A stretch of 59,671 nt of DNA, filler included, from Diploschistes diacapsis (taxonomy: Eukaryota): the NCBI GenBank assembly GCA_023645945.1. It is 6 parts of 6 records of this genome, joined end to end, with 100 filler letters (N's around TTAATTAATTAA, not from the genome) between each part and the next. Parts side by side here need not be neighbours in the genome. Positions count along the whole stretch, not along the records: positions 49,830 to 59,671 come from JALAIB010000991.1; 5 more parts are not named here. One strand, written 5' to 3'. Each line of letters begins with the position of its first letter. The stretch's first letter is position 1. Under the pieces are notes generated by a model that worked only from the letters and a program-made list of their open reading frames with translations, searched no databases and was not told the origin of the DNA. This document shows, one piece after another, positions 9,882-59,671 of the stretch. The position numbers were made by a program, and so were the translations under genes.

Positions 9882-9981
9882 NNNNNNNNNNNNNNNNNNN
9901 NNNNNNNNNNNNNNNNNNNNNNNNNTTAATTAATTAANNNNNNNNNNNNNNNNNNNNNNNNNNNNNNNNNNNNNNNNNNNN
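9882..9981. other. Artificial contig spacer N44-TTAATTAATTAA-N44
   Basis: Exactly 100 bp with a six-frame stop linker at 9926-9937. Confidence 0.98.
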
Positions 9982-19858: not shown

Positions 19859-19958
19859 NNNNNNNNNNNNNNNNNNNNNNNNNNNNNNNNNNNNNNNNNN
19901 NNTTAATTAATTAANNNNNNNNNNNNNNNNNNNNNNNNNNNNNNNNNNNNNNNNNNNN
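19859..19958. other. Artificial contig spacer
   Basis: N44-TTAATTAATTAA-N44. Confidence 0.98.
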
Positions 19959-29826: not shown

Positions 29827-29926
29827 NNNNNNNNNNNNNNNNNNNNNNNNNNNNNNNNNNNNNNNNNNNNTTAATTAATTAANNNNNNNNNNNNNNNNNN
29901 NNNNNNNNNNNNNNNNNNNNNNNNNN
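29827..29926. other. Artificial contig spacer
   Basis: N44-TTAATTAATTAA-N44. Confidence 0.98.
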
Positions 29927-30807: not shown

Positions 30808-32408
30808 CTACCCCGTCAGCGGCTGCCCAGGTGGGGGCGTTCCACTCAGGTCCGGATCATCCGGGTTACTCGAGGACAGAGCGGGGTCGTCGCAGCTGTC
30901 GCAGCTCGCTGACGGCTGGATGAAGCTGCCAAGGTTGCAGCTGAAGGGGGCGAAAAAGGGGCTGATGACGCCCTCGACGAAGGCGGAGTAGGTGTCGATG
31001 TTGTCGGCTAGCGCGGTCTGGAACTGGCCGGGCACGGTGTCGAAGACGTTGGACTGCGAGGTAGGGAAAAGGGAGGGTGTTAGCTACATACATTGGAAAG
31101 AAGAAGAAGAGGAGGGTGGGTGATATTAGGGTTGCGGATAGAGGGATGAATGGTACTTACGAGTACAAAACACATGACCTGATCAGGTGTCATGCTCGTG
31201 ATGTCGGCGTTGAGCGGGATGAAGTTGCCCGTGCCTTGGTTCATGCCCAGCTCGAAGGGATAGCCCGCGTAGATGTTGACAAGATCGTCGGCGAGGTTGG
31301 CAAGGCCGTAAGCGGTGCTGCGACGGAACCAACTGCAATGAGACCACGTCAGTGCAACGACTCGATCTTCGGGCCAGGGCTCGGTACGAACTCATCGGGG
31401 AACGTGTTGTTCAAAAAGAACGGCTCGATGTTTGCAGCATCGGCCGTCTCTTCGTGAGTCCCGTTGGGTAGTCCTCTGAAGACGAAAGCACGCTCTGCCA
31501 AGGATACGGCAAAGTACTTGGCGCCTGCAAAGAAATCAGGGTTGGTCGAGCGTGCTGTCTCGTAGGTCGCCTTTTGATTTGCGATCCAGGTCTCGATGCC
31601 GAAAAAGCCTCCGCCGGACTGGACGGCCTGTTGGCGGATCGTTTCCCAACGGCTGGGGATGAAGTCGGCTTGGTTACCAAAGTAATTGTCCTCGCGCGAG
31701 ATGGAGCCGTCGACTTCAAAGGTGCCGTGCTTGTCGAGTCCCAGCGCGGGACCGAGCGTGTTGGGTACGCGGCTGTCGGCACCGCCGATCGAATACTTGC
31801 CCGACACCAGATCACCACCTGCAATGAGGCCGAGAGCCGAGAGGAAGGTAGAGAGATCGTAGCCGAAGCCGTAGGCCGTCTGCACCGCGTTCGAGGCCTC
31901 GGCGAAGGTTGTGATGCCACTGCGGTCCAAGAACTAGTGATATGTTAACAGAATCCGAATCCCAATTGAGAATCGACTGAATATCATACGGCTGTGTTTG
32001 CGAGAGTATTGAGTGTTGGGCAAAGCCCCCGTACGTCCGTATCGGCAGGAGGCATGAAAGCATGAGCGGGGTCGTCCCCTGGAATCTTCTTCAGGCCTTG
32101 TGGCTGTGGGGTAGGAAGGTCAAGGTCGGCCAAGATGCCCGTCAAGGGCTGGAGAAGGCCACCCACTGAACGAATATCGGCATTAGGCTCACAAGAAGCA
32201 AGGACGAAGGCATACAAAGGCCACCCCCAAGAGCACCACCGCCAAGTATACCTTGACGCTTTTCCTTAGCGCTTCGTACGGCAGCGTTGCCAATTATGCG
32301 GCTGGTGGTATCTCTCATCATAGCCGCTCTTTCCTTAGAATCAAGATCGGGGGCCATGAAAGGAAAAGCAGCGGCCGTAGAGGCCAGTAGAGTCAAAGAG
32401 TAACGCAT
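30808..32408 (-). CDS. Secreted heme-thiolate peroxidase / unspecific peroxygenase (long type), 442 aa
   Basis: Signal peptide, DVRGLCPTLNTLAN heme-Cys motif, HGTFEVDGSISRED, FPDDWFRR. Exons 32408-32216, 32165-31990, 31933-31392, 31332-31161, 31053-30808. Confidence 0.92.
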
Positions 32409-36100: not shown

Positions 36101-38270
36101 TTATCAGTTGGTTTATGTCGTCTGTTTACGTGCCGTTAACGCATCAGGATTTAGTCTCGATCGGGCGTAGAAAATCAATAGGCAAGCCTCGCAGGACGCT
36201 CGGACGATGTAACGAAAGTGGCTACACATATCCTAACTAGAGCAGGACTATGTTTGTCCCACACATTGGAGTACGTTCTGATAAGAAATTCTCGAATTGT
36301 TGACTTATGCGACCATCATCCATTAGCTCCAAACAGTTTCTCCAAATGGCTCTCCTCATCTTTTTTTCTGTCTCTTGTTACTCTCCCGTTCATTGCATAT
36401 ATCCCCCACCTTACTTAGAGCGAGAGTGGACACTCAGAGTGCGGCGAGAACGTAAGACAAATATGAACCCATGCATCCTCCTGTTCTCCTGGCTTGCTGT
36501 GTCTTCGGCGATCTTAACATATGGCTCGGGCCGCGCGTATATATGATGCGGTAGTTTCGAGATTCTCCAATATTTGCATTCGAACAACCTGTGAGATATG
36601 TTGCTGACGACAACGAAGGAGACCGATGAGTGTGACTCTTCTCAACTTTCAGCTTAGTATGGCTCGTCATTCGGTTGGTCCTCGATAGAATAAATTCCAA
36701 GATAATGGCTTAGACTTCCCAAGGAGTCTAACGGGTCTGTAACTAGCCCATTTGGTTGCCCGGCGGCTTCATGTAGGGTCAGAGCTCTGGCGTGCTCGAG
36801 GACCAAAATGCCCTCTAAGTAGCTTTTCCAAAATCTTGAAACGAATGTGCCTGAGTACGTGCTGGCTAAAGTATCGGCCAAGAGTTCTAGTTGCTTATAA
36901 GTTACATACTGGGGCCCGAAGGACTAGCTGATCATGCCCATTGCTAATGAACTGGCAAGCCTCTCCACGTGATTATTGAGCTGGAATATAGGGGGCTCAA
37001 AGATATCGACGGTAGCCTTTTTGCTTTACAAATCAGTCATGTCCAATGATAGTCAGTCTACTTACATTGATGCTAAAGAGGATGTAGTCCACCCGTATTG
37101 GAAACTCCCTTCACCTGTGATCACTCCAATACTTGAGAGAAGTCCTGAGTTGTACTTATGTTCTTATACCTGACTTGTATTGCTTAGAATTGGGGAACAG
37201 ACGCCATGGGCATCCTTAATAGATTCAAGATTCAAGATATCCCATGAGCTTCTCCAATGCGGAAGTAAAAATTTGTGCGTCCTTGTTCACCTGTTGAGAT
37301 GCAGCATGGCAGTGTTTCCGACCTAAAACTGGCTTGTGATATTATTATTTTGCTTTGAGAAGGTAGCCTATGTAAGGTTCTGCTTATCATCGAGTTATTA
37401 CCACACGACCATCGAATGTAGGGCAACAAGCGGACCCCAGACAGGAAAGATAGAACGCTTTTGTCAGGCTGGAAGCCATCACAAGACTCGAATAGTACCT
37501 TGTAGCCAACCGTATGCCTTTCAAAGCACTGTTTCAAGCCACCCTATTCTTTTTCATCATGTGTGTTACTTACTCAATTATTCGAGATACTTTAGACGCT
37601 GGCAACGAAGTCCCGGTGGGGCCCGAGAACTGCGTAAGAGACCAATCCCTGGGTAATACAACGAGTTTATAGCAAACGATGCCTATTATGACACTCGACA
37701 TCTGATATCCTAAACATTCCGCGCGAGAGATCAAACTACCGTGACAGCCCAGAGCTTCTCGAACTTGGGCAGTCCCGTGTAGCAGACTTGGAACCAATTG
37801 CAAAGTGGTGTTGATGTCAAGATGGCTAATGCCCATGTTCATTTAGGAGATAAAAACAGCGATACAAGAACTCGAGCACGGCGATTGCATCCCCAGCCAA
37901 CCTGTCGACGGTGCAACCTAATTGGGAGCACACCCAGCTGACCTCCGTGGTTCATTGGCTTGGCCGAAAGAACGTCTGATTGCGCTTTTGGGATACGTCC
38001 ATGCATCGGAAGTATGACTTCGACTTGGAGGATTGAGTCTTCTGACTGCCCATCACTTGATCACTTGCTCGGTAGTTGGGGATTTGGCTATTAGTAAATT
38101 GAGCTTGAAATTAAACTCTTCTCGCTCGGTGCATGCCAATTGTTCGAGGCTGTCACCTAAACTATGAATTTCTCAACTTTTTCGATTGATTCTTCGTAAC
38201 GATAATGCTGGAGAAAACCTGTAAGGTCAAGTCTGGATGTATGATGGATTGATGTAGAAGCATGAGCACT
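33200..38270 (-). pseudogene. Possible highly decayed gene relic(s), unidentified
   Basis: About 5 kb with no intact gene; co-oriented coding-like minus-strand fragments (e.g. 35763-36056, 36654-36881, 37570-37842) broken by stops. Confidence 0.3.
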
Positions 38271-39783: not shown

Positions 39784-39883
39784 NNNNNNNNNNNNNNNNN
39801 NNNNNNNNNNNNNNNNNNNNNNNNNNNTTAATTAATTAANNNNNNNNNNNNNNNNNNNNNNNNNNNNNNNNNNNNNNNNNNNN
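39784..39883. other. Artificial contig spacer
   Basis: N44-TTAATTAATTAA-N44. Confidence 0.98.
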
Positions 39884-41603: not shown

Positions 41604-42171
41604 TATGAGGTCGTGCACTGGAATTAGTAAGCAGTCAATACTGAGTAAGTTATTGCAACTAGACTCAAGTTCCTTTCGGGTTAGACTTCCCGTTAAACTT
41701 TATTCAGACTAGCGGGTATTAATTAATTCGATTATTAATTACATTAAATATTATTATTTTTTTAAATTTAGCCGTTATTAACAAAACTATACATCGCCCA
41801 TTGAGAAATAGCCTCGATGAGCTGGCTGGTTGGCTGTAAAGAAGCGTGCTAATTGGCCAACTGACACGCCGATTACGAAGCCAATTCGCTAATTGGCTTT
41901 ATTGGCCACGGGAATCCCAAAGTGCTCGCATCGAGGTTACCAACTACTGGCCCGAACAACCGACGGAGCGGCGTCAAATACACTACCACCGATATGCCTT
42001 GAAAATCCTCGCGTCATTTGGGTTGTCAGTCACTCTACAGTTCAAGCGCTCCCAAGCACATAGTCCACCCACTGCGGCGGAGCCAGAAATAAGAGGGTTA
42101 AGTTCTGCGGGAAGAAACCACGGTGCAGTTCACTAGCTGCCAAAAACAGTCGCCTTCGGTACATAATCATC

Positions 42172-44644
42172 ATGTCGGTGGATATCGTTGGCACGATAGG
42201 CATCCTTATCAATTTGGGATTAGAAATCAAGACCCGTCTCGACTCGCTCAACCAAGCTGCCGAAGACCTTCAACTGCTGACCACCAACCTTATGCTTTTG
42301 CTGAAGATTTTTGAGAATCCCGTGAACGAAACCCTCGTCAAGACCCGTGTGTCGGAGTTCGTATATATCCTCGATGTCCTGCAAAGCATTGCACACTCGT
42401 GCACAAAATGCGCAAAGGCCTTGGACATCGACCTTGCTGGAGCGACAGCTACGACTAAGAAGGCCGAGGGACGTGGCATAAAATTCATCAAGCGGCTGCG
42501 GGCTTTCAGCATGATTCCTGACCTTCTCGCTGAAATTCAACGCAAGGCCAATCAACTTCAACAGATATACAACGTAATATCTACGATAATTGTCCACGAC
42601 ATCAGGACACAACAGGGAGGGACGAGCGAAAAAGAAACCGTTGAATCCACCTCTGCCGTAGAAGAACCAGCACGTCATGAGAACTTGCTCGACCTGGACC
42701 TCAGCACGGGTTTTGCTAGTATCGACCAGATGGTGGGAAACCTAATAAAGGAATGCAACCACCTTCGGCAACGACTTCAGGAGGCTACTCTGATTCCTGA
42801 TACGTCAGCTATTCAAGTTTTTCAAGCACAGAACCCAGAAGCCGCATCATTTTGGAAGGATCGATTCCAAGAAAGAGAACTCAACGCCTCGGCTCTCCGC
42901 TACGAGGTAACGAGAACCTCAGCTCCTTATTTTTTGGATTCCCGATGTCGCCGTATCATGCTAACACATTGCTTTCTCGACAGACGATATATGTATCTTG
43001 GGCACGTTTTGTACATATCGTAGAAACGTCTCTTGTTCTCAAGAAGATACCGACTGGGATTCTTGAAACCGGAAATATTGACCTCGTTCGCCAGCAAGGA
43101 TCTCGCTATTCCATCGATGAAAGCGGTACGCGTTGTCTTTCCAGTATCCGGCCCCTCTGGCTCCTAGCTCTTCGGTCTGCTTTCGACCCGCTGCACAAAG
43201 GTTACGTTAAACCACTAGACTATTTCAATCTTCTTCACGACTCCTCCTTGTCTGAGACACTTAGAAAATTAGTCCTCGAAAACGCAGGCTATGGCATAAT
43301 TGTCGAATGTGAGAGGGCATCCGAGGATCTTTCCTTGCCGGCGGCAATCGAGTCCCCCTCTGATCACGTCGGCTGGATTTCTGCTCAAATCGTGGCCGTT
43401 CCAACATCCAATGAACTTGGGATCGTTACCGAACGAGAGATCGTGGAATCAAGCAGCGACTCCCTCTTTGCTAGCTTCGACGGTGCTACTCAAGACGTTC
43501 ACGTTTACGTACGCTACCTTCAGACTGGTCAAATCGAGCGTAAGAGTCTCTCAACCCAAGTTCGTCCGATCGGGGGTATTTCTATTGGCGCTGCGTTTTC
43601 TATCTGCCATGAGCTAGAATCAGGTGACCATGCCTGGAGCTGCGATCTTCACATCACTGAGTTCAAGGCATGTTACGGGGGACGGTACATTATTACGGCG
43701 GGTGTGGGTTCGGCCGCTATTGTGTTTTCGACGAGACCATTCAAGAATTCCTTCGACAAGATGCTAAGCGACGACAACTTCTCGACTTCTGCCATACCGG
43801 AATTTTCCTGTACGCTTCTGGGACCGTCCAAGGTATTCAGCCAACCACCGAAAGTTGGCGAAAAGGTTCAGGTAAGTATTATTTCTCCTCGGTCACTCCG
43901 CTCTACGTTTGTCGAGGTGCCATTCTCATTCTGTGATTTGATAAGGTCGGGTACGAAGGACTTTGGTACGATTCGAGAGTAACATTAGTGGACGGCGATG
44001 AGATAGAGTATACCGATTGGGACAGTTCACCGAACCAAGTCTCAACCAATATTACAGAAACTCGGAAGGATATTAAAGAGGAAGAGGAAGATAGAGGTAG
44101 TCTTTTCTTTCCCGAAGAGCAGTTAACACAACTCGGAAAGGGCACGAGGCGGCTATGGCGACCATGGCGGAGAAATATCAATAGGTACGACGTTCGACCT
44201 TATCATCGCTTCCATATCGGCGATTCTATCGAGGCACCCGTTATGTACCCGGATTTCCGATTCTATTACCATGTTATCGACGACTCTCAACTCTACCTTC
44301 CTGCTCGAATCGTTGATGTCCAAGGTGACCAGTATGTCATTGAATTCAGTCCAGCGTTTTCAGTCCATGGGTGGTGGCCAGGGAGGATAGCCAAGGGTCA
44401 ACAAGTAGACCTAGTGCCGGGATCAAGGGATAAGGTAAAAAATCCGTTCGACTTCAATCGCGTGACGTTAGGCATGGATCTAGTGCGCCCTTTCTCTGCG
44501 GGACCACGGCCGGTTCTGGGTGTTCAGTCAATGAAACCGCCTGGTTGGAGTCCATATCAAGGAATTCACCTCCGCAATCTTGAGGATCTTTTGGAGCAGA
44601 GTCTTTGGAACAATGACCGTGACAGCACTCGAGCGGGGGCCTAG
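42172..44644 (+). CDS. 773-aa multidomain protein: MLKL/Cbl-like N-terminal helical bundle, Cbl-type EF-hand-like region, multiple Tudor/Agenet-like barrels
   Basis: Exons 42172-42906, 42984-43871, 43946-44644 join three ORFs in frame with canonical splice sites. Domain calls come from motif recognition only. Confidence 0.8.
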
Positions 44645-46791: not shown

Positions 46792-46919
46792 CTGAGTAAG
46801 GAGACCGATTGACAATCGCACGAAGCTATTTGTCAGAATAATGGGACCTACGTATTCTGCCAAGACACTAGCACACGCGTTTTACCTCGTGATGGGAAGA
46901 GAAGATATTGTAGGGTCAT

Positions 46920-47456
46920 TAGAGAGGTTTAGCAATCCTGTCGCTGCGGCTGCGAGTTTGCTATTGTAGTTAGCTCGTGTCTCGGCGCCGAGCGCTGCTT
47001 ACCTCTCTGGGAAGCATCTCCGAAAGTTTCCGCAGCGTCCACCTATAGAACCGCAGACGTCGTATACGCTGCGAGAATCCTAATATAGATAAGCGTCAAG
47101 GAGAGAGCCTTATGGCCCTTTACCGACGCATCCGCAGTTAAATATTAATATTTCCGTATTCTTCTGCCTTCTTTTTCTCCTTTACTCTTCTTAACGCCTC
47201 GCGCTTTGTTTTTAAGTATAATAAAAGAATAAACATAATAAAGGCCCTACGGCCCCTTAAAACAAGCCTCTGAAAACATAAAATGGCCATATTTCAGGCC
47301 TTTTGGACTATGTTTAAAAGGGATGAAATTATTAAGAGCATTGCCATTTTGATATACTTCTTAATTTGGACTAGTCTATTGCCAAGACCCTAAATAACGC
47401 TAGCTACATCTGGATTCTCGCAGCGAGCGCATTGACAGGGTTGCTAAACCTCTCTA
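46920..47456. mobile_element. Non-autonomous TIR DNA transposon
   Basis: 23-bp TIR TAGAGAGGTTTAGCAA(T/C)CCTGTC with one mismatch; AT-rich interior; TA/TWA-type termini. Confidence 0.82.
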
Positions 47457-49527
47457 ATATTAAATCACTTATGATATCCGGAAAGCAGCCTGCTAACTGA
47501 ATACAGGAAAGAGTGCATGCTCTCTTATTGGTAGTGCTCGCGCTTTCCCAACCTCTGTGGTGCTATTCCTCAGCCATGCCCCCAGCATTGAAAGTTTCGA
47601 TCTCTGAATCTTCCTATCCATTGTAGCTCCTACAGCGGTCTGTGTATGGCATAAAAGCGAGGCTCCACAAGACTTGGCTCGATCGTAAAAGGCCATAGAA
47701 GCTCCCCCATTACATCGTTCTTGCAAGGCACAAAGTCTGAAGCTCCCCCAAAGAACTGCTCGCGCTCGAGAGGGGAATCGAACAGGTAGACTGCAAATTT
47801 GCGGCATTCTTGTTTCAGAATAATAAGATGATATGATGGTACCATCGGTTGGACTGGCGTAGTGGGAGGCTGGTCGGCGCCATCGGCCATTCTGTCAAGG
47901 AAATTGTTGCAGGCTTCAAGGAATTTCCTTTAGAGCTGGGACGGAGCACTAGACGGAATTATTAGAGAATTACAAATCGAAACCGAGCAAAGCTCCTCTT
48001 TTATCTGTAATTCTTGCTCTGCAATTTGCTTGGAGAGTTATATTTTTACACGAGGTGTGGGGTTTCTATGTTGTGGAAAAATTAAGAATCTACGCGGTGA
48101 GACATACAACTACGTGACTGGAAGTACCTGATATCGCGCGTCCGTGTCAACCTCAGCCGTAAAGCAGCTGTTGCTTCGGTTCTTTGTCTCTCCACAGCTA
48201 TGATTGCAGTAAGTAGATATCCTTTATCCGCCTCTTTCCGCCCCCGGAATCCGATATTGTGGACACAGGTAAGTGCTTAAAGCGTTGCCCCGGACGACCC
48301 TAAAGCCAAGTCTTAGTCTGGTATATCTATTGGATATGTTTCGAAGCCGCCATCGCCGTAATCATAGTCTCTATTGCAGCGGTTCGAGGCATCTTCGGAG
48401 CAAATGGTGCAAGCCGGGCCCTTCCACAGAAGCTTAATAGTATGTCATCAAAAATGGATCGCTTCTTTACATGGGCCAGTCACACTTCGGCGTCATCTAG
48501 CCAGCTTTCTGATATGGAGTCTGGTAATCGCGCCAACTGTGGCAAGAAGGAAGTAGCCGATGCCAACACCAGAAAAGGTTGAAGACACTCGAGGAACCGG
48601 TAAGAGCTTCTTCTTCCAATGGACGAGACGCGCAGAGAGCCCCATTGCCCAAACGAACCGTAATGGCCTGAGCGAGACTGCAACCACAACACTACGGCGC
48701 CTACTCCTCCCCGAAAGATCGCCCGACCCAACCTGCATCTGCTCGGGCTGTTGATGTTTCCGGTATTCCGCTCTGTCGTCGGCCTCTCCATTATCGACGA
48801 CGTGCTCTGCTGGAAGCCCCCTGGCCAGCGTTAACAAATAGCACTTCGAGACTCGAAAATATACACACACCTGTCCCTATCCTTTCGTCCCGCTCAAAAC
48901 AGTGTGCAGCGGCATTGGGGGCCAAGCAACTAAAGGCACTGTGCTTTAGGACAACCTTGTTTGTATTCTATTGTGCAAACTTTCGATCGTCAGGCTGCCC
49001 CCTACTTCGCTACAGGATCTACATAACTCAACAGGCACCTGATTCGCTGTATCTCACTGGCTGAGCGAATCTGAAAGAAAGGATTAACTTTATTAATAGT
49101 AGCTGCATTTTAGATGTTTAGCTTGTCATAAGCCCACCATGAGAGATATTGTCGACCTGTATTCTTGAGACACCTCCGAATATTAATGAGTTGTTGAAGG
49201 TTATTTTCGTAAGCTATGACATGCTGATAGTAGATAGTTGTTGATCTGGTCATCCTGCAGGCATCACCATGAGAAGCGGCTTTCCTAGATACGTGACCTG
49301 TGGAATGGAATAGAAACTGCAAGTTGTTAAGACCGCGGGAATGTGTGCCTGCTTCTTCACAGCCTGAGTATTACATCGGTTGAATGCCGCTACAACCAAG
49401 CCTATCCCTTCAAGAATATGCACATTCGATGCAAACCAAAGCGCTCCAGAAAAAGCTCCAACTGTTCTCATCAACTGCGCACAGACAACGTATTTCCCAG
49501 CAACTCACCCTCGTCCCGGTACCACCC

Positions 49528-49729
49528 TTATCTCTTCCTCAACAGCCTCCTCTCCGCATTCCTCTCCTTCCTCGCACTCCTCTTCCGCCACGCCAACCAC
49601 CTGTTCCCGGGCTTGTACTTCTTCGCCTTCCTCATCGCCGCATCCATCACCTCCCCAATCTCGCGATTACTCTCCCTGTACATATACCCATCCTTCAACG
49701 CAAGCTGCGGCTTCGTCCCCACCCCACCC
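49528..49729 (-). CDS. C-terminal fragment of an unidentified gene cut by the contig edge
   Basis: Open frame from the gap to a stop at 49528 (..LALKDGYMYRESNREIGEVMDAAMRKAKKYKPGNRW..) with coding-like G3 bias. Confidence 0.55.
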
Positions 49730-49829
49730 NNNNNNNNNNNNNNNNNNNNNNNNNNNNNNNNNNNNNNNNNNNNTTAATTAATTAANNNNNNNNNNNNNNN
49801 NNNNNNNNNNNNNNNNNNNNNNNNNNNNN
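49730..49829. other. Artificial contig spacer
   Basis: N44-TTAATTAATTAA-N44. Confidence 0.98.
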
Positions 49830-50425
49830 TTGTTTTACGACTTAAGATTCTTTTTTATTTAATATTTATATTAAACCTTTCGGCGAATCATCGGGTCGAT
49901 AATATTAAAAAAAAAGATAATATTACGATTTAAATATTAGATTTAATACGTTTTAATTTTATATATAAATTAATTACGAGATTAAAGATCACGTAATACG
50001 CTTATTATTCGCGTTTATTCTTATAAACGATAAATACGTTTTCGTTATCGCTCGATAATCGCGTTTATTTTCGTAAACGACGAGCTTCGAAAATACCGCT
50101 CGCTAAATTTATAATAAATGGCGAGCGAGTTAATTATATATAAACATAATTTTATTTTCGTGAAAAAGAACGTATTTATTTTTATAAATATTTTAAGTTA
50201 TTATTCGAGATTAATTTATATTCGTTATTTTTATCATCTTAGAACTTTCTTTTTAGAGAAAGTTTAAGATTTATAACTTTTCTATCTTTTTTTCCTGCCA
50301 CACTCCTTTTCTAACAGAGACCAAACCCACCTTGATCCTACTCGTGTATACCTTGTATAAATAGAGATCATAACACAGCCTTACGGGGTTCGGGTTCTAC
50401 CCGCCTACACAACCACCCCCTAACA
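49830..50425. repeat. RIP-like AT-rich relic followed by an LTR-like segment
   Basis: CpG-retaining AT-rich tract to about 50290; then TATAAATA and CTAACA termini (50316, 50425) typical of LTR ends. Confidence 0.5.
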
Positions 50426-50444
50426 TCCTTGGCACGGTTGGTAC

Positions 50445-50507
50445 CCGTCATGTAACCCTGCCGTCATGTGACCCTGCCGTCATGTGACCCTGCCGTCACG
50501 TGACCCC
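50445..50507. repeat. 16-bp tandem repeat x4 (CCGTCAYGTRACCCTG)
   Basis: Units start at 50445, 50461, 50477 and 50493; the last carries the palindrome GTCACGTGAC. Confidence 0.93.
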
Positions 50508-50529
50508 GGTGGCTTGGCACGCCTGGGCT

Positions 50530-50921
50530 GATCTGTCTCATAAATATTATGATAAAAATAAAGAATCTTTCGGCCTATAAACGTTTTATATATCTCGCGA
50601 GGACATTCTTTTGTTTAACAGTTAAAAATTATTGCGATTAATGATTAATAAATCTTTTAGAACGGTTATTAAGCTAATTAAGAAAAAAGAAGAAAGAAAC
50701 GCCGTTACGTCGAACGATTTTACGAAATGATAGCGAGAGGGATTGAATTTTCGTTTCGATGAGAGTATTTTCTATTATCGAGAGTATTTAGGTTTAAATT
50801 AGCAAAAAATAAAAAAATATATGGAGCTTATAATGGATGAAAAAGGGGAGCATTTTGGGTGTAAAAAGCGCTTATGGATGATCGGTTACTAGGGTCCGCT
50901 CGGTTACTAGGGGCAACACTC
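50530..50921 (+). mobile_element. Right end of a hypermutated pogo/Fot1-like DNA transposon
   Basis: AT-rich decayed coding tract ending in two direct TCGGTTACTAGGG repeats and ..GCAACACTC-TA. Confidence 0.55.
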
Positions 50922-51069
50922 TACAAGTATCTAGTATCTGTACAGACTCAAAGGACTGAGCTCTAAAACTGTTCTTTCCATACAGCAGTGCAAACTTGCG
51001 CAACGATGATCCTACACCTGTTAAGAGCTCGCCATCACTATGAAACAATCTGTGAACTGTCTATCTGTT

Positions 51070-52066
51070 CTATCTGGCGGGGCCGGATTCTGGGCTCACG
51101 TCTTCAATGTCCACTCTACGTTTGCCTGCCCAAGTGTCTAGCCTGTTCCAGTCGACGCACTCGTGGTCGTTATACACACGCGATGTGGGTCCATGTTCGG
51201 TGGACCAGAAATACGTCCTGAGAGATATATCTGCTCTGCACATTGCGGCTTCGCGCAACACCTCCAGGCAATGTGCTGTACCTCCTTAGTGACCTCACTG
51301 TATATGCTGCAGTATAGACTTACCTATATGATCAGACTCAAGCTGTTTCTCGAAAATCGTAGCGTTAGGATGATCCTCCGTCCATGTCAAGTGAATCTGC
51401 AGCTGCCGCTTTTGACAATATTACCACATAATGGATTTGAAACCTAAGGCCGGGATGCTTACCACACAGTGTAGTTCGTGATATACTTGCAGTGAGGAAA
51501 GATAGCCAGAACCATCATTCAGCGCCAACGATACGCCGGGATCCGTCTTTGCAACATCTGCAGCAGAGACACGGATATACAGATCTGACCATGGTAAGTG
51601 ATGTTGCTTGTTGGAAGTTCAAGGGCGGGACTAACTAGCCAGTAACTTGTCCCAGGCCTCGCTCAGTCCCTCTTTAGTTCCACCAGAATAATCCTCGGTC
51701 GAGTACGCATTTGCCTGTACAGAATACTTCAAGGAAACCATTTCGTACTTGAGGCTTTGGTATGCGGGAGCTTATTTATATGTAAGTGTCATCCCTCTGC
51801 AATTGATTCGAACACCTACAATGTAATTGTCGTCCTATATTCTCGTGAACACTTGAGCGTTTCGACTTGAGAAACACGAGGGTATATATCATGACAAGCA
51901 CTCCGTGGAATAATATTTGCACGGCCGTCCATCTACGCTTTGATTTTTTCTCGTTTTCTTGTAAGCCATAGGCTGAGTGTTTGGATTGCGCAATAGCTAA
52001 ATGATGGTAAACTTTCTCACTCGACAAGAATGGTTCGATATAATCGGCGCTGTTTATATCCGCCAT
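51070..52066 (-). CDS. DUF3328/UstYa-family oxidase, 264 aa
   Basis: N-terminal TM helix, SPA, EAWDKLL, YHELHCV and DHIAHCLEVLREAAMCRAD (two HxxHC motifs), HECVDW. Exons 52066-51820, 51770-51636, 51584-51463, 51408-51324, 51275-51070. Confidence 0.93.
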
Positions 52067-52606
52067 GGTTTCGTTATCACACAACGACCGATAGAGCAGT
52101 CAACAACAGAAAGTTCAATGTGCAGGACGGATACTTGGGAGGAAAGTAAGGGGAAGGCAGCAGCCATTGTTCGCGACCTACGAGGGCTTGTCGTCTCTAT
52201 CGGCCTATTCCGTTCTTTCGTTTCATCTGATCGTCGTGGTGTGACCCCGTCTCCGAGGTTTTTTTGGGAGTGATTGGATCCTCCACCTGGTCATGTGAAT
52301 CATATGTGATGGACATGCATGCAGTCAGTTCCGCTTCCTACCAGATCCAAATCTGAAAAAGCGCTTCTACCCCTGCTTCAGCTCTGGTCTTTGCCACAGA
52401 TCCGCAGGTAGGGTAGTTGGAACGGCAGAGTACGACGAGTCCTTGACTCGACACAGATTTTGATGATTCTGAAGATGCTGAACTCAGTATAAGTATAAGG
52501 CATCCCCCTGCTCAGGATCGCTCGTCGCTGCCCATCAAGAATTTTCAAAAGTCTAGAACTTACGATTTTCCGAAGATCTCTACGATTCTATTTCTCTACA
52601 ATCAAT

Positions 52607-52813
52607 ATGAAGCTATTTGCATTCGCCACAGTGCTAGCCTTCTCTATCGGTCTTGCTGCTACAAGTCCTCTCCCCGATTGTAAGTCTCAGCATGGAAGGA
52701 CAGGCTTTAGTCACTTTACTTAACCTTTGGCCGTAGTACTCCCACGGGAAGCCGAGCAGTACAGCGATGCCTGGGCACCAGCAAGCGATGACCATGTTCA
52801 GCCAAACCACTGA
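52607..52813 (+). CDS. 49-aa secreted peptide, candidate RiPP precursor (MKLFAFATVLAFSIGLAATSPLPDLLPREAEQYSDAWAPASDDHVQPNH)
   Basis: TATAAG twice near 52488-52499, CAATATG start context, signal peptide, intron 52680-52736 (GTAAGT..CTTAAC..TAG). Not in the ORF track. Confidence 0.8.
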
Positions 52814-53782
52814 TGCGAAGGAATTTAGTGTTTGAAGTGACATCCACATTGTCAGTGGATTCAAATGTTGGCAATGGGGGAAGGGAAAGATATGGCAATA
52901 GCGTCCTGACTGCTGGGACGCCTATGCTCAGGCGTAGCTCTAATCTATCCCATTGACCGTGCTACTTGCGTGCATAACAAAGTGCGACGTGACTCCAATT
53001 GATTGGGCATACGCTACTCCCGTGAATGATCATAGATCTTGGATAATTAAATGGGCCTAATCTTACACCGCGCTTACAGTACTGCGACACCGTGTTTGAA
53101 TATCTAGCATTGTACATTTTGATTGGCACACAAGGCACGGTATCTGGGAGCAGGGCGTTCGCCGTGTGCTTCCACCCACCTCCACACCAAGAAGTAAGCT
53201 TGCGCTGTAAGTTGTATTGTATTACTTGCTTCGTGCTCCAGCTGACTCTGATCCGCACCGATGCGGTGTGCAGATCATGTATGAAAGCCCGCTCGCTACC
53301 TTGCAACTACGATTGGATCTTGATAACGGTAGTAAAACAAAACGCTAAAACGATACGGCGATCAGAGCATCTTTGTGGCCTCGCTAATCTTGTAGAATCA
53401 TGTCGAATCAAAAAGCTCGTTTCTCCTTGATCGCTTTCCTACAACGGAAAAGATATATGCAGTCCTGTATGATAGCGATGTCAGTGCCTTCCACTTGCGT
53501 ATGACTCGGAATTCGCGTTAGCCACACTGCATTTTTGCCTTGTGCCGGTGGTGGTGCCGCGCGAGATGGATGCACCCCTCTTCACAGCTGAAATCTTCCA
53601 TTGGATGCAGCTCCCTCCCATCGTCCCTCTTCTTGTTTTCCAACGCGGGCGACTTTCCGTCCTGCACGTCGTGCGGTCCCCCGAGTATTTAGCTCTTATG
53701 TCGCTCCTATGGCTCACTCTTTCGTAACCCGCAAGATCCTTCCGTCGAGCTGCTCCCATTCGATTGCATTGTACCCGCCATC

Positions 53783-55409
53783 ATGGATGAATCCCCTGGA
53801 AAGATGTACGCGCTTGCGAGCGTGATGACTATGCTCGCCGTTGTCCCAGTGCTGCTCCGATTTCGGGTCAGATCCAATCAAAATCTGTCACTTGGCCCGG
53901 ATGACTGGCTTATGATCCCTGCTCTGGTATGTCTGAAAATCTATTGCTTGTATCGCACACTGACCATGTATATAGATTGGCACTCTGGGTAGCGCGATTG
54001 CAATGTATATCGGTACATCATCAGCCCTACGATACAGACGTTTGGAATTTGGCTGATAAATTCAACAGCAACGGCAGAGGGAGGTCTAGGGCTACACACA
54101 CCAATTGGGCCCGACGGAGCTCCAGATTTCACTGATGCTACCGTTATCTTTCTCAAAGCGAGCTTCGTGACTCTCTTGACTCAGATCGTCACCTTCAGCT
54201 GCACGAAGCTTTCGGTTATCTTCTTCTATCGCCGGTAAGCAGTAGGGAAACACGAAAGCCGGGATGGACTTACATAAATGCAGCATCTTTGTAGGGATAG
54301 TCTTCAACATCGCGTCCTGGACGTTGATCACGATTGTCCTTCTTTGGTCCGTAGGGTACTTCTTTGCGAACCTATTCGAATGCAAGCCTATAGAGGCCAA
54401 TTGGGTGGCCAACGGTGTCAGTTCGACCTGTGTAGATGAATTGACAATGTATATCTCGGAGTCTTGGACCGATGTTTTCACAGACGGTAAGTCACTCGCG
54501 TTGTCGATCGGTTTTCCGCTAATCGTGTAGTCTTGATCCTTTCCTTGCCTCTCCCCATGGTACATAAGCACAATAGCTCCGTTTATTGGATTCCACTAAG
54601 CGGACTGTAGATCTGGAAACTACATATGACAACTGCGCGAAAGTTGGCCCTCTGCGGCGTCTTTCTCTTAGGTGCCCTGTAAGTCATGTTCAGTCCCTGG
54701 AATCGCTTCGTACAGGATTAATCATGCACAAGGACGGTAGTCGCAAGCATCGCCCGACTTGCCGTCTATTACCATATTGAGAATGGTAAACACTCAACAT
54801 TAGTATTCTAACTTGTGCTTATGCTGACTTCTCGTAGTCGCCGATACTGAAGGTGCCGCGGATATCACTTGTAGAGCTCCCTCATTTTCATTCCTCCAAA
54901 AGCCTGCCAATTGGGTGTGCGCTGATATCTTAAACAAGGGCTCGTCGCCCCAACCTTCTACTGGCCGATGATCGAGTCCTCCCTGGGTATTCTCGGCGCC
55001 TGCCTGCCCGCCCTGCGCCCCATCTTCCGTGGCTTTTCGCCAGAGAGCGTCATCCGCAGCATCCGCAGTGCCCTCTCGCTAGACTCCCTAGGCTCCAGGC
55101 ATTCTAAGACCGGGTCCGAGCGCTCGAAGCAGCCAGCCAAAGCCATCGACCAGAATGGCTCCGAAGTCGAGCTGACGGGCGTTCACTCCCTCGGCTCTGC
55201 ACACGGCGAAAGGTTAGTGCTGGAAGAATATTCCAGCTGCACCCCGATTTTCTCCTCGAGACCGACTGGTGTGCTGACTGCTTGCTTTTGACAGTCATCG
55301 CAACGAGACCGGGCTTGCGAAGACTGCGGATTCCGATGTAGAAAGGCCGCACGGTGGAAGTGTGCCGGCGGACGGTATCATGGTTGAGCGATCGTATAAT
55401 GTAGTTTAG
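53783..55409 (+). CDS. PTH11-like / fungal rhodopsin-domain integral membrane protein (multi-exon)
   Basis: LRFRVR..LGPDDWL, TKLSVIFFYRR|IF, FECKPI..W, D|VLILSLPLPM|IWKLHM..RK..VFLLG, WPMIESSLGILGACLPALRP. Confidence 0.9.
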
Positions 55410-55845
55410 TGGCTATCGATGCGGAGAGCAAGATTCATATCTTCTTATATATGGGCATCGTATTTAGTATCTATAGACAGCGTATTATCCACGCCAAACC
55501 CAAAGGAGAGAAATATCGAAGAAATGACATGAAGAATAAAAACCGGTAGATTTAAATGTAGTATTTTCGCCTTCAACGTCAACATAGCGTGTAATCGACG
55601 ACGATCAATAAATCGACTTACGTAGATCGCATCTATAATTATTTTAGATTCAGCATGCAAAGCAACAACAGAAAACTTTTAGCCCTATTTCTGAAAGTAT
55701 GATTGTTCATATGAATTCCGTCTCAAGACCAAACTTATACACCAGAAATTAGCTCGCTCCCCGTAGCTCATCGTGTATATCAAAGCAAAACAATTTCTTC
55801 ATCTCCGACCCGTCTATTTACGAACAGTTTCCTCACTCTTTCGCC

Positions 55846-56856
55846 ATGTCTCCTTCGCCCCTGCCGATCTCGATCTTTCCAGTCGCTCAGCACGACATTC
55901 CTCTACTAGCCGCCGTCGAGGGCGCAGCCATGCAGCCCTTGCCCTTCAACACGTGTTTCTTCCGGCCAGGCGTCGGCGCCGAGCGGCAGCTGGCCTTTTT
56001 CGAAACACAGTTGCGGAGCAAGTTCGAGGGCGCACGCACCGGACCCTCGAGCACCATCTCCACGGCAGACGGAGGGTGGAGGAGGGTGAAGACAGGCTTC
56101 TTGAAAGCCGTGCTTGACAAGGATGCGGGGGGTACGGTGCGGGGGGAAGGCGGTGGGAGCGTGGGCGAGGCAGGGTCGGTGGTCGGCTTTGTCATCTGGA
56201 CGATTCTGGAGCGAGCAGGCGCCGCTGCAGCGAACGGATGTAGAAAGGAGAGCGGAGGAGCGGCGAGGGAGGGGACGTCCGAAGGTGTCGCCGAGATCAT
56301 CAAAAACGGTCTCGGAGGAAAAAATGACGACTTTCCAGATCACGCCCCGGATGACGCCAAAGGCTCGTCGGACACTCCGGTTGTACAGAGAAAAGAGATG
56401 GGCCTACCGGGCAACAAGCTACGTCCGGCAGAAGAGAGGGATGACGACGCAGAACTCCTGAATCCCGCCGCCGCCGAGTGGACGGAACACGCACACGCGC
56501 TTCGATGGCGCGTCACCCAGGGCAGGGGCAGGCACATGTACTTGGATAAGATGTATGTCACGCCGGCTGCGCAGCGGAGGGGCGTTGCGTCCAGGCTGTG
56601 GGCGGCCGGGCCAGGGAGAGAGCTCGTCGGCGGCGGCGTCGATGGCTCGGAGGGTGGGATTTTTCCGATTGACGGAGAGAGGCGGGTACGCTTGGCGGCG
56701 ACGGTCGCGGTGGGCGCCTCGAGACTGTTCTATCAGAGCTTGGGGTTCGAGATGATGGACTCGTACGTGATCGATCTCGAAGCAGCTGCGGGTGTGGAGG
56801 GTGCTGGCTTTGGAGAGTTTTGGTTCTCGGGTCTCTTGAGAGATCATGATGTCTGA
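55846..56856 (+). CDS. GNAT-family N-acetyltransferase
   Basis: VVGFVIW, MYLDKMYVTPAAQRRGVASRL (acetyl-CoA motif A), LFYQSLGF. Confidence 0.88.
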   Translation: MSPSPLPISIFPVAQHDIPLLAAVEGAAMQPLPFNTCFFRPGVGAERQLAFFETQLRSKFEGARTGPSSTISTADGGWRRVKTGFLKAVLDKDAGGTVRGEGGGSVGEAGSVVGFVIWTILERAGAAAANGCRKESGGAAREGTSEGVAEIIKNGLGGKNDDFPDHAPDDAKGSSDTPVVQRKEMGLPGNKLRPAEERDDDAELLNPAAAEWTEHAHALRWRVTQGRGRHMYLDKMYVTPAAQRRGVASRLWAAGPGRELVGGGVDGSEGGIFPIDGERRVRLAATVAVGASRLFYQSLGFEMMDSYVIDLEAAAGVEGAGFGEFWFSGLLRDHDV

Positions 56857-57152
56857 CATCGTATCGCTTTGCCAGCGAGGAGAAGCCATTAGCTGCAAAG
56901 AGATTGGACAGCATGCAATGCCTTTTGCCCTTCACGTCTCCTTGAAAGACTATGTTGTAGATGCGGCTATCACAGAATACAGGGAAGCCAACGGCTAGCG
57001 CTACTACGCGTAGATGACGTTGCAACCCCTTACCTAAAAACTGCTTCACATCATCATGAATAAGTACAACGAAAATTCGAAGCAGAGTATAAAAGATGGC
57101 TTCAAGGCGGGATACCTTGAAGAGGAAAGTAAGCTAGTTTCTCTTCTCTCTT

Positions 57153-59419
57153 ATGGTCGGGACCTCACTATCCTTCCGCCTGGTAGTGTTGTCTACGGTT
57201 GTGTTACTTTGCCTCCAGCCCTTGTTCATGCTCTTCTATAATCTGGCCCGCACTACCATACACATCCCAGTATCGCGCCTCCAGCGAATGACCCGCCATA
57301 TGGCGTCCCCTTCCGTAAATGGATCCAGCAATGGCATCTCTAAGAGGCTTTCATTGGCAGAGCTGCCAAAGTCGAATGTTTTCACATCCAACTTACCAGC
57401 AGATGCAAAGTTCCCTGCACCAGAGGACTCATATAACGCCAGCCGAAAGGATCTTGGCCCGCGTATGGTAAAGAATGCCTTGTACACGTACGTTCGGCCT
57501 GAGAAGAAGGAGGAACCCGAGTTATATGGCGTCAGCCTTCAAGCAATGGAAGATCTTGGCTTGAAAGAAAGTGAGAAAGACACCGAGGACTTCAAGAGCC
57601 TAGTATCAGGTAACAAGATTATGTGGGACCCGAAAACGAAGGAAGGCATCTATCCATGGGCGCAGTGTTACGGAGGTCAGCACTCCATCAAGCACTTCCA
57701 AAAGTATTACTGATATAGTCAAACAGGCTGGCAATTGTAATGGCCCACCTGAGTTCCGTCCTAATTGAGTGAATTCGCTAATGACCATCAGCGGCTCATG
57801 GGCTGGCCAACTAGGAGACGGGGTTTGATGCCACAGCATGAGCTGATAAGATGATAATGCTTACCTTTTATAGCGAGCAATATCTCTCTTCGAATCGACA
57901 AATCCCGAAACCAATGTCCGCTACGAAGTGCAACTTAAAGGCGCCGGCCTGACCCCCTATTCGCGTTTTGCGGACGGAAAAGCCGTAGTGCGTTCTAGCG
58001 TACGAGAGTTTGTAGTCTCTGAAGGTAAATCCCTCCTACCTTCTATATCACCTGCATTAACACCACCCAGCGCTCAACGGCCTTAAGATCCCCAGTACCC
58101 GCGCGCTATCCTTGACACTCACCCGCAAAACCAAAGTCGTCCGCGAACGTCTTGAGCCTGGTGCAATCGTCTGCCGCTTCGCCCAAACTTGGCTGCGTAT
58201 TGGCACATACGACATCCTGCGCGCGCGGGGCGACCGGGCCAACATCCGACGCCTCTCTGACTACCTCTTGACCCACGTTTTTGCCAACCATACCTTCCCT
58301 TCTTCCCCCCTCCCTGAACCCCCCTCTTCCTTTGCTTCCTCATCCGAATCCCCTCAGCTCGAAGAACCACTCCACATAAACCGGTACACCACCCTCTACC
58401 GTCACATCGTTCTCCTCAACGCCCGCACCGTCGCCGCCTGGCAAGCCTATGGCTTCACCAACGGCGTACTCAACACAGACAATACCTCTCTATTCGGCCT
58501 CTCCCTCGACTTCGGGCCCTTCGCATTTATAGACAACTTCGACCCGTCGTACACGCCCAACCATGACGACCACATGCTGCGCTACTCATACCGCAACCAG
58601 CCATCCATAATATGGTGGAACCTCGTCCGCCTGGGGGAAGACCTCGGCGAGCTCCTCGGCTCGGGCCCGCGCGTCGACGACCCGGACTTCGTCACCCAAG
58701 GCGTCTCCTCAAGCTGGGCGCCCGAGCTCGTCGCCCGGGCAGAGCGCATCATCGCAAGCGTGGGCCAAGAATACCAGTCCGTCTTCCTGGACGAATACAA
58801 ACGCCTCCTGTCGCAGCGCCTTGGCCTGAAGACGGTCAAGGAGTCCGACTTCGAAGACCTGCTCTCCGCGCTGCTGGACACGATGGAGGCGCTGGAACTC
58901 GACTTCAGCCACTTCTTCCGCCGCCTCTCCAGCCTCCCTCTCGCGGCGATCGCATCCGCGGAGCAACGGATGGAGAAAGCCGCGCTGTTCTTCCACGCCG
59001 AGGGCCCGACGGGCCTTGGGTCCCAGAACGAGGCCTCGGCGCGCGAGAAAGTGGCCGTCTGGCTGGGCCGCTGGCGCGCGCGGGTCATCGAGGACTGGGG
59101 CTCGGACTCGCCGGAAGGTGTGGAGGAGGTGGAGGAGTGGGATGGCGAGAGGCAAGCGGCGATGAGGCGGATGAATCCAAAGTTTGTGCCGAGGGGGTGG
59201 GTGCTGGACGAGGTTATCAGGAAGGTGGAGAAGGAGGAAGACAAGGGGGTTGTGGAGCGCATCATGCGCATGGTCAGGGATCCGTTCAGGGAGAGTTGGG
59301 CGGAGGAGGGGATGGGCGGTGGAGGACTGAGCGTTGAGGAGCAGAGGGCGGAGGAGGAGAGGTGGTGCGGGGAGGTGCCGAGGACGGAGAGGGGCATCAT
59401 GTGCAGTTGCAGTTCCTAG
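57153..59419 (+). CDS. FMP40: SelO/YdiU-family protein adenylyltransferase (Fmp40)
   Basis: [61 protein letters not shown]-terminal MCSCSS. Contains a 10-nt microexon 57727-57736. Start could be 57153, 57228 or 57288. Confidence 0.95.
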
Positions 59420-59671
59420 AGCGTACGAAGGCGATTTGGAACAAGAAGTGGGAAGCAACATTAAAACAAGAGCTATGGTAAAACATCTGGCATGCGTGAA
59501 CACACATGTCGTTTCAAATTCATTATCATAAATCCAACACTCATCATACCTTGGTTAGTGACATCAATGCATCGGAACCATCCCACCCATCTTATCCAGC
59601 CCCACCTACCGCACCCGCAGACCCAAATCATCCTCGCAGCTCCTCCAGCGCCCGAACATCCCGGCACCTCC

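Follow-up and report, generated by a model that had tools for sequence, protein, structure and literature searches.

Does the UstYa/DUF3328 oxidase gene of Diploschistes diacapsis stand next to the gene of its own peptide substrate? We asked this of a stretch of 59,671 nucleotides from assembly GCA_023645945.1, six parts of six records joined by filler letters, which is referred to here as the window; the locus in question (51070-52813) lies in its last part, positions 49,830 to 59,671, which comes from JALAIB010000991.1. A preliminary description of this locus, made from the sequence, had proposed a minimal two-gene locus for a peptide that is made on the ribosome and modified after translation (RiPP), in which a hidden gene for a secreted peptide of 49 aa is divergent from the oxidase gene. 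We find the anatomy as described, and we give a probability of about 0.4 to the reading that this is a small UstYa-type RiPP-like locus, in a single-core variant, with the hidden micro-gene as its putative precursor gene. This reading is plausible but unproven, and it draws on the intact state of the oxidase, on the build of the micro-gene and on precursor-like genes that we found beside related oxidases.

The oxidase gene and the adjoining micro-gene

The UstYa/DUF3328 gene is located on the minus strand (51070..52066) and, when spliced by coordinates, encodes 264 aa. Minus-strand reading and scripted splicing yielded five exons (52066-51820, 51770-51636, 51584-51463, 51408-51324 and 51275-51070), which add up to a coding sequence of 795 nt and are separated by four introns of 49, 51, 54 and 48 nt, all of them GT..AG. 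Exon 5 alone matches the UstYa family PF11807 with 53.6 bits (E 3.7e-14; Pfam cutoff 25), and a 71-aa open reading frame (ORF) of the gene reaches 55.9 bits, also above the gathering cutoff of 25. Exon 3 scores 19 bits against the same cutoff, and exons 1, 2 and 4, each scanned singly with Pfam, gave no PF11807 match. The first of the two HxxHC motifs, HELHC (residues 163-167; 51466..51480, minus strand), is conserved in the aligned relatives, and the second, HIAHC (residues 195-199; 51268..51330, minus strand), is split by intron 4 (51323-51276), the position of which is common to two relatives. When the spliced model was compared by phmmer with the relative P0011, the score was 141 bits, and in the alignment with full-length relatives the model is colinear and unbroken across all four junctions. 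By inspection, residues 46-66 (51931-51869) form a hydrophobic stretch of 21 residues near the N-terminus. All the sequence features that could be checked are thus those of an intact member of the UstYa/DUF3328 family, and we regard the enzyme as such. The accessible text of PMC12186524 reports the family to be dicopper, O2-dependent and to make side-chain cross-links. A PDB sequence search with the UstYa ORF of a relative matched no UstYa structure.

The ATG of this gene and that of the micro-gene are separated by a divergent intergenic region of 540 bp (52067..52606), which contains TATAAG twice, at 52488 and at 52494, some 115 bp 5' of the micro-gene ATG. Exon 1 of the micro-gene (52607..52679, plus strand) consists of 73 nt, that is, 24 codons and one base, and encodes a signal-peptide-like start. 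Right after it comes a predicted phase-1 intron of 57 nt (52680..52736, plus strand; GTAAGT...TAG), followed by exon 2 (52737..52813, plus strand), which encodes LLPR, EAEQ, a single core Y-S-D-A-W and an acidic, His-bearing tail, with the stop codon at 52811-52813. The predicted product of 49 aa contains one Tyr and one Trp, and the acidic tail encoded by exon 2 is without Cys. No internal repeat is present in the peptide, and Tandem Repeats Finder, run over 52607-52813, found no array. LLPR supplies the single Arg of the pro-region, Lys is present only at residue 2, and both KR and RR are absent.

Whether so short a frame is a gene was judged by several measures. Our own signal-peptide heuristic, which is crude, requires that the N-terminus be basic, that a hydrophobic run without charges be present and that the -3/-1 site be small. 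Of the 446 ATG-initiated ORFs of at least 22 codons found outside the known coding parts of the window, two pass, and the micro-ORF is one of the two. The other, at 37514 (+), begins MPFKALFQ... and is situated in a region without Pfam matches. A relaxed scan of 50860-53800 returned three ORFs, and among these the micro-ORF alone is clearly signal-peptide-like. Codon usage was scored as log-odds trained on 5450 codons from the Pfam-confirmed ORFs of the window. The micro-ORF obtains 0.153 bits/codon, as compared with a mean of 0.126 for genuine coding chunks of 49 codons and of 0.007 for null ORFs (standard deviation 0.071, n = 152), 5 of which reach 0.153. It should be noted that the choice of the exon-2 frame is not resolved by this score, as the chosen frame obtains 0.172 and an overlapping frame 0.164. 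The acceptor used is the first that leaves an open frame, and the resulting 57 nt are similar to the UstYa introns (48-54 nt). Thirteen alternative acceptors for the 52680 donor, with products of at least 45 aa, were also considered; none enters a positive-scoring ORF except the overlapping frame, at 52764. We therefore consider the micro-ORF to be probably a real gene, and its being a product of chance to be unlikely.

The observations of the preliminary description are thus confirmed. Splicing, the PF11807 matches and the HELHC and HIAHC motifs bear out its intact five-exon DUF3328 gene with both HxxHC motifs; the 540-bp divergent intergenic region and the two-exon micro-ORF of 49 aa are present where it placed them; the signal peptide is predicted by our heuristic as well; and the peptide does carry one non-repeated core, with a Y-x-x-x-W pair, behind a PR/EA site.

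Relatives of the oxidase and the genes beside them

An exhaustive HMMER search with UstYa exon 5 returned 526 proteins at E <= 1e-3, of which the best are 56-59% identical within exon 5, and the closest full-length relatives, a Cordyceps sp. protein and Hymenoscyphus proteins, are 39-41% identical. A word-index protein search with exon 5 at longer lengths gave 9 candidates, none of which scored. From metagenome contigs, a pattern scan yielded 21 loci (L001-L021), which fall into seven locus groups. A maximum-likelihood tree of 46 rows, 9 of which are locus rows, places the window UstYa inside a clade (96/92, starred in the tree) of 15 rows, namely the window UstYa, the 'UstYa-1' of all 9 locus rows, P0007, P0009, P0011, P0019 and P0151. 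In most loci a second and very divergent gene, 'UstYa-2', is found tail to tail with UstYa-1 (L014:5560-7372; L002:4014-5249; L006:5671-7297 and related loci), and the UstYa-2 genes form a clade of their own, with a branch length of 3.18. The pair is accompanied by a methyltransferase and a GMC oxidoreductase in L002 and L014; beside the UstYa genes of L004 are a major facilitator superfamily transporter and an M20 peptidase with a signal peptide.

Four of the locus groups include DNA beyond the UstYa gene or genes, while L001, L012 and L021 end too early to be judged. Precursor-like small genes were found in three of the four judgeable groups (L002; L004; L014-L020). The signal-peptide heuristic flags 1 of 148 ORFs in L002, 1 of 227 in L014 and 2 of 119 in L004; in all, L014-L018 and L020 have one match each, and the remaining loci have none except L003. 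The second match in L004 heads the M20 peptidase ORF, and the match in L003 is the same peptidase. Apart from the peptidase, the flagged ORFs are exon 1 of small unannotated genes that share one build: the signal peptide is encoded by an exon of 58-73 nt, an intron in phase 1 (52-63 nt) comes next, and a short acidic exon then holds two to four Trp-core repeats, which sit behind Asp/Ala spacers. The gene in L004 (L004:7292-7639) has a 67-nt exon and a 63-nt intron, and encodes four KR-delimited units with the core VGNSWTK. The genes in L014 (L014:8126-8396) and L015 have a 73-nt exon and an intron of 58 or 52 nt, and encode two units LVRNSWSA; such a gene is present also in L016-L018 and L020. 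In L002 (L002:6078-6520), a 58-nt exon is followed by a 55-nt apparent GC-AG intron and three units [LM]VKNSWSAR, one of which is split by a second intron. A regex scan found NSW cores in the same loci, L002, L004, L014-L018 and L020. Between L014 and L015, where the UstYa-2 proteins have an identity of only 83%, the two core copies do not differ in protein sequence, the changes in or close to them are synonymous, and the indels in the spacers, of 6 and 18 nt, keep the frame. Unchanged cores, synonymous changes and in-frame indels argue that precursors of the L014/L015 type are real, constrained genes.

The L004 repeat exon (P0272) shared words with 165 candidates in the protein collection, none of which scored, and in the ESM Atlas its best feature score was 0.76, with a bacterial hypothetical cluster, which is uninformative. 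[quoted passage not shown] Relaxed precursor scans of L006, L001 and L021 returned nothing convincing, and an 'MRF...' start at the end of L001 was rejected as a precursor, since it falls inside the UstYa-2 coding range.

How, then, does the micro-gene of the window compare with these precursors? In build the two agree, as its exon 1 of 73 nt and phase-1 intron of 57 nt correspond to 58, 67 or 73 nt and to 52-63 nt, respectively, in the relatives, and in L002, L004, L014 and L015 the phase-1 intron likewise comes straight after the signal peptide. Position also agrees, the micro-gene being situated beside a UstYa gene of the clade and a Pth11-like gene. The peptides have a common layout, in which X-Ala/X-Pro dipeptides and acidic residues come after a basic residue and precede a hydrophobic residue, three further residues and Trp. 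The window core is Y-S-D-A-W-A and that of the relatives V-x-N-S-W-S/T, in each case with the Trp flanked by small residues.

The Pth11-like gene just mentioned encodes a seven-transmembrane (7-TM) protein and is directly 3' of the micro-gene (53783..55291, plus strand); it is multi-exon, and Fung_rhodopsin (PF20684) was matched on its ORF pieces. Genes of this Fung_rhodopsin/Pth11-like kind stand beside the UstYa genes in three of the seven locus groups as well, L005-L010 (L006:7904-9242), L014-L020 (L014:9986-10920) and L021 (L021:3253-4489), and over three pieces the window copy shares 40-48% identity with the one in L005-L010. As the same family is present in the loci of the relatives, the 7-TM gene is a possible third member of the locus. 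The PF20684 domain is placed under Pth11 and Pth11-like receptors in the accessible part of a 2026 review (PMC13308352), and we found no link between DUF3328 and PF20684 in the open-access library that was searched.

The proposed precursor and the alternatives

If the micro-gene is the precursor gene of the oxidase, the anatomy suggests the following route, in which the anatomy itself is what we observed and each processing step is inferred. The 49-aa prepropeptide would enter the endoplasmic reticulum by means of its predicted signal peptide. There, UstYa would be held in the membrane by its N-terminal anchor, with a lumenal domain that contains both HxxHC motifs, and would oxidatively modify the single core around Trp37. 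The simplest such modification would be a link to Tyr33, four residues upstream, which takes the position of the conserved Val in the V-x-N-S-W cores of the relatives. A kexin-like protease could then cleave after LLPR and a Ste13-type dipeptidyl aminopeptidase could take off the X-Ala dipeptide, so that a modified peptide of about 17-21 residues would be secreted. The Pth11-like 7-TM neighbour may be part of the system and serve in export, in protection or in sensing. The general setting would fit as well, as DUF3328 genes were reported to be most frequent at the position adjoining precursor genes (Umemura 2020, PMC7329392, in its accessible text). A broader proposal, that this UstYa clade of lichen-type ascomycetes works on unannotated two-exon, Trp-centred precursors and travels with a Pth11-like protein, the window being the single-core case, is one that we hold to be doubtful at present.

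Several results weigh against the precursor reading and should be considered together. In sequence, nothing ties the peptide to the relatives' precursors: the best tblastn match of the micro-peptide in the 21 loci has an E of 1.7; a profile of 11 repeat units from the relatives ranks the exon-2 ORF only 97th of 2681 window ORFs, at -0.4 bits; and the Trp-centred alignment, made by eye and with MAFFT, is without statistical support. The window peptide has one core and no KR/RR site, and the regex scan found no NSW core in the window. When the relatives' precursors were compared by blastp with all window ORFs, the micro-ORF was not singled out. Also on this side, an intron in phase 1 behind the signal peptide is a frequent feature of eukaryotic genes for secreted proteins. 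As for the enzyme, the window UstYa forms, on a long branch of 1.26, the sister of the remaining 14 members of the clade (99/96), is just 33-41% identical to them over the full length, and is accompanied in the window neither by a UstYa-2 of the relatives' kind nor by a remnant of one. A further locus group, L005-L010, is well covered and has the UstYa pair and the 7-TM gene, and no precursor was found there. According to the accessible text of two papers, only 31.8% of 9399 DUF3328 genes are within 15 genes of a repeat precursor (PMC7329392), and DUF3328 enzymes occur also in clusters built around a non-ribosomal peptide synthetase (NRPS) or a polyketide synthase (PKS) (PMC12048977). Since similarity, repeats, an NSW core and a dibasic site are all missing, we describe the link between the window peptide and the relatives' precursors as one of architecture and position, without demonstrable homology. 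A frame 3' of the stop codon (52792-52953, with VGN/GNS) was also considered as an L004-like unit and was dropped at -3.4 bits.

These results leave room for three other explanations. The micro-ORF might be a chance open frame with a hydrophobic start, in a promoter region common to the UstYa and 7-TM genes, in which case the UstYa gene would be one of the many 'orphan' DUF3328 genes, with a substrate that is no peptide or has its gene in another place. The lack of a micro-peptide homologue in the 21 loci fits this, as do the near-equal scores of the two exon-2 frames, the 5 of 152 null ORFs that match the codon score and the survey figure of about 68% of DUF3328 genes without a repeat precursor within 15 genes (PMC7329392, accessible text). 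Chance would nonetheless have to produce, in a hard joint coincidence, a signal-peptide-like start passed by 2 of 446 ORFs, coding-like codons, a canonical GTAAGT donor immediately behind the signal peptide, an intron as long as those nearby and a TATA-like element, and to do so where the clade relatives carry real precursors, which makes us consider this explanation rather unlikely. Alternatively, the micro-gene may be real yet unrelated to the oxidase, encoding an ordinary effector-like or pheromone-like peptide or pro-peptide, small and secreted, that has no more than the divergent promoter region in common with UstYa, while UstYa acts elsewhere. A signal peptide and an acidic, Cys-free tail, with no repeats, dibasic site or similarity to the relatives' cores, are what such a peptide would show; the L005-L010 group demonstrates that clade members can be without an adjacent precursor, and DUF3328 enzymes are described as acting in non-ribosomal pathways too (PMC12048977, accessible text). 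This explanation leaves aside, however, that the build and the equivalent position are those of the precursors in three related locus groups, that the spacing from the hydrophobic residue to Trp is common to them, and that the 138 window ORFs of at least 90 aa include no NRPS, PKS or other core biosynthetic gene; we judge it unlikely.

The remaining explanation sees the locus as a decaying relic of a larger cluster, once with two UstYa genes, a repeat precursor, a methyltransferase and a GMC oxidoreductase, of which one UstYa and one degenerate core are left beside an AT-rich block, the product being no longer made. The relatives' UstYa-1/UstYa-2 pairs with methyltransferase and GMC oxidoreductase (L002, L014) are such a cluster, and the window is without UstYa-2, methyltransferase or GMC oxidoreductase. 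The 3' end of the UstYa gene abuts the AT-rich block (49830-50300: 24% GC and a (CA+TG)/(AC+GT) ratio of 0.28), the core would have drifted from NSW to DAW, and the UstYa is on a long branch. Against this, both genes are intact, with clean splice signals, no frameshift or stop and both HxxHC motifs retained; a degraded second UstYa was sought in 46800-51100, where the best E was 6.5 and no remnant was recognised. A single UstY-type enzyme can moreover be sufficient, as it is for asperipin-2a (cited in PMC12048977, accessible text). Decay is thus, in our opinion, distinctly improbable.

Returning to the precursor reading, the interpretation given in the preliminary description is partly supported. 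Its pairing of precursor and oxidase gains from the genuine UstYa and from clade relatives with genes of the same build nearby, and is weakened by the lack of detectable peptide similarity. The proposed cross-link between Tyr and Trp agrees with the relatives in its spacing of a hydrophobic residue, three residues and Trp; as the relatives keep Val...Trp and not Tyr...Trp, a Tyr-specific chemistry is not implied, and a Tyr-Trp cross-link in the window peptide is a conjecture. The preliminary description had further suggested that short secreted ORFs conserving YxxxW be sought beside homologues. Short secreted ORFs do exist in three of the four judgeable groups, and what they conserve is V-x-N-S-W, not YxxxW. 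The idea of a single-core peptide class is not supported: the relatives' precursors carry two to four repeats, so that the single core is an exception in the clade and not a demonstrated class. The 'two-gene' label covers the UstYa gene and the micro-gene, and may prove too narrow, given that Pth11-like 7-TM genes turn up repeatedly beside loci of the clade.

Surroundings and known systems

The Pfam scan of all 138 window ORFs of at least 90 aa, taken over the whole 59.7-kb window, revealed mainly housekeeping genes: a Zn2Cys6 factor, Hobbit/FMP27, EMG1, Trm10, FTA2, a family-2 peroxidase, SET/MYND and SelO. The 7-TM gene is followed by a GNAT-like ORF (55753..56853, plus strand; Acetyltransf_7, 26 bits, just below the cutoff of 27), which is noteworthy solely because lichen Clan R2, considered below, is described as a single UstY with GNAT genes. 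The peroxidase (31352-32265, minus strand, in two ORF pieces) is of the heme-thiolate, unspecific-peroxygenase type and is 19 kb from UstYa; nothing ties it to the locus. Three long ORFs on the same strand at 42064-44641 (+), of 319, 393 and 235 aa, have no Pfam match even at E 0.05 and are probably one multi-exon gene of unknown family. The AT-rich block at the 3' end of UstYa spans 49830-50860 and no coding remnant was recognised inside it; the composition of its first part, 49830-50300, resembles that left by repeat-induced point mutation (RIP). Within the block, at 50445-50506, is a 16-bp tandem repeat of 3.9 copies (consensus CCGTCATGTGACCCTG), in which three copies have CATGTG and one has the E-box-like CACGTG. 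Paired runs of 44 N, about 10 kb apart, occupy 9882-9981, 19859-19958, 29827-29926, 39784-39883 and 49730-49829 and resemble masked sequence more than assembly gaps.

Among known systems, the dikaritin clusters of the ustiloxin and phomopsin type (UstA/PhomA, UstYa/UstYb, tyrosinase and methyltransferase) resemble the window in that a UstYa with two HxxHC motifs, the class-defining enzyme by the definitions quoted in PMC12048977, stands beside a precursor, putative in the window, with a signal peptide. They resemble the relatives of the window enzyme in having two divergent UstYa genes and a methyltransferase. The window differs from them in having no tyrosinase, methyltransferase, second UstYa, repeats or core of the Tyr-x-Ile type; neither a tyrosinase nor a methyltransferase was found among the 138 ORFs or in a relaxed scan of 40-49.7 kb. 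As the putative window precursor is without repeats and KR sites, both of them features that define such precursors, and the locus is without the tyrosinase and methyltransferase of the older definition, we do not class the locus as a dikaritin cluster.

The KEPs, as described in the accessible text of their survey (Umemura 2020, PMC7329392), share with the window peptide a signal peptide, a basic cleavage site and X-Ala dipeptides like those of yeast alpha-factor. Among the relatives' precursors, the best fit to the KEPs is that of L004, with its four KR-delimited units. The window peptide, in contrast, consists of a single unit and would be missed by a repeat-based search.

Lichen Clan R2, compared here by its description in the accessible text of PMC12048977, is reminiscent of the window in having a single UstY with two HxxHC motifs, a GNAT-like gene nearby and no recognisable repeat precursor. 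A housekeeping gene of the window is also closest to lichen fungi: its Trm10 ORF has at most 56% identity to other proteins in the collection, and the best named ones are from lichen-forming Lecanoromycetes (Thelotrema, Xylographa and Trapelia, 54-55%). Clan R2 differs in belonging to Parmeliaceae and in having GNAT genes on both sides, whereas the window has one weak GNAT-like ORF, two genes away from UstYa on one side, and none on the other. For lichen DUF3328 clusters without recognisable repeat precursors, the authors suggest, in the same text (2025), a precursor elsewhere or a 'single core peptide'. In the open-access library that was searched we found no description of a single-core UstYa precursor or of a Trp-based UstYa cross-link.

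These comparisons bear on why the locus deserves attention. Repeat-based mining reaches precursors near about one third of fungal DUF3328 genes, and the window together with the three related locus groups offers concrete and cheaply testable candidates of another kind, genes of 49-94 codons that contain introns and escape gene callers. Should the window pair work as proposed, it would be the smallest UstYa system known, with one enzyme and one core, and a handy model for substrate recognition. If the broader proposal made above holds, many 'orphan' DUF3328 genes, and lichen clusters for which a precursor has been sought in vain, would find their missing precursors in hidden micro-genes of this type, and the repeated presence of a 7-TM gene nearby would point to a modified peptide that is secreted and has a receptor of its own.

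The system that, by analogy, comes closest to the window in design is that of the dikaritin asperipin-2a (AprA and AprY). According to the accessible text of PMC12186524 and PMC12048977, one UstY-type oxidase is enough there, within a small cluster that encodes a secreted precursor, and the cross-link is made at an aromatic side chain. Compared by description, the AprA precursor has many repeats, delimited by KR, and ether links based on Tyr, whereas the window peptide has a single core with a Trp-centred motif, and a Pro-Arg site.

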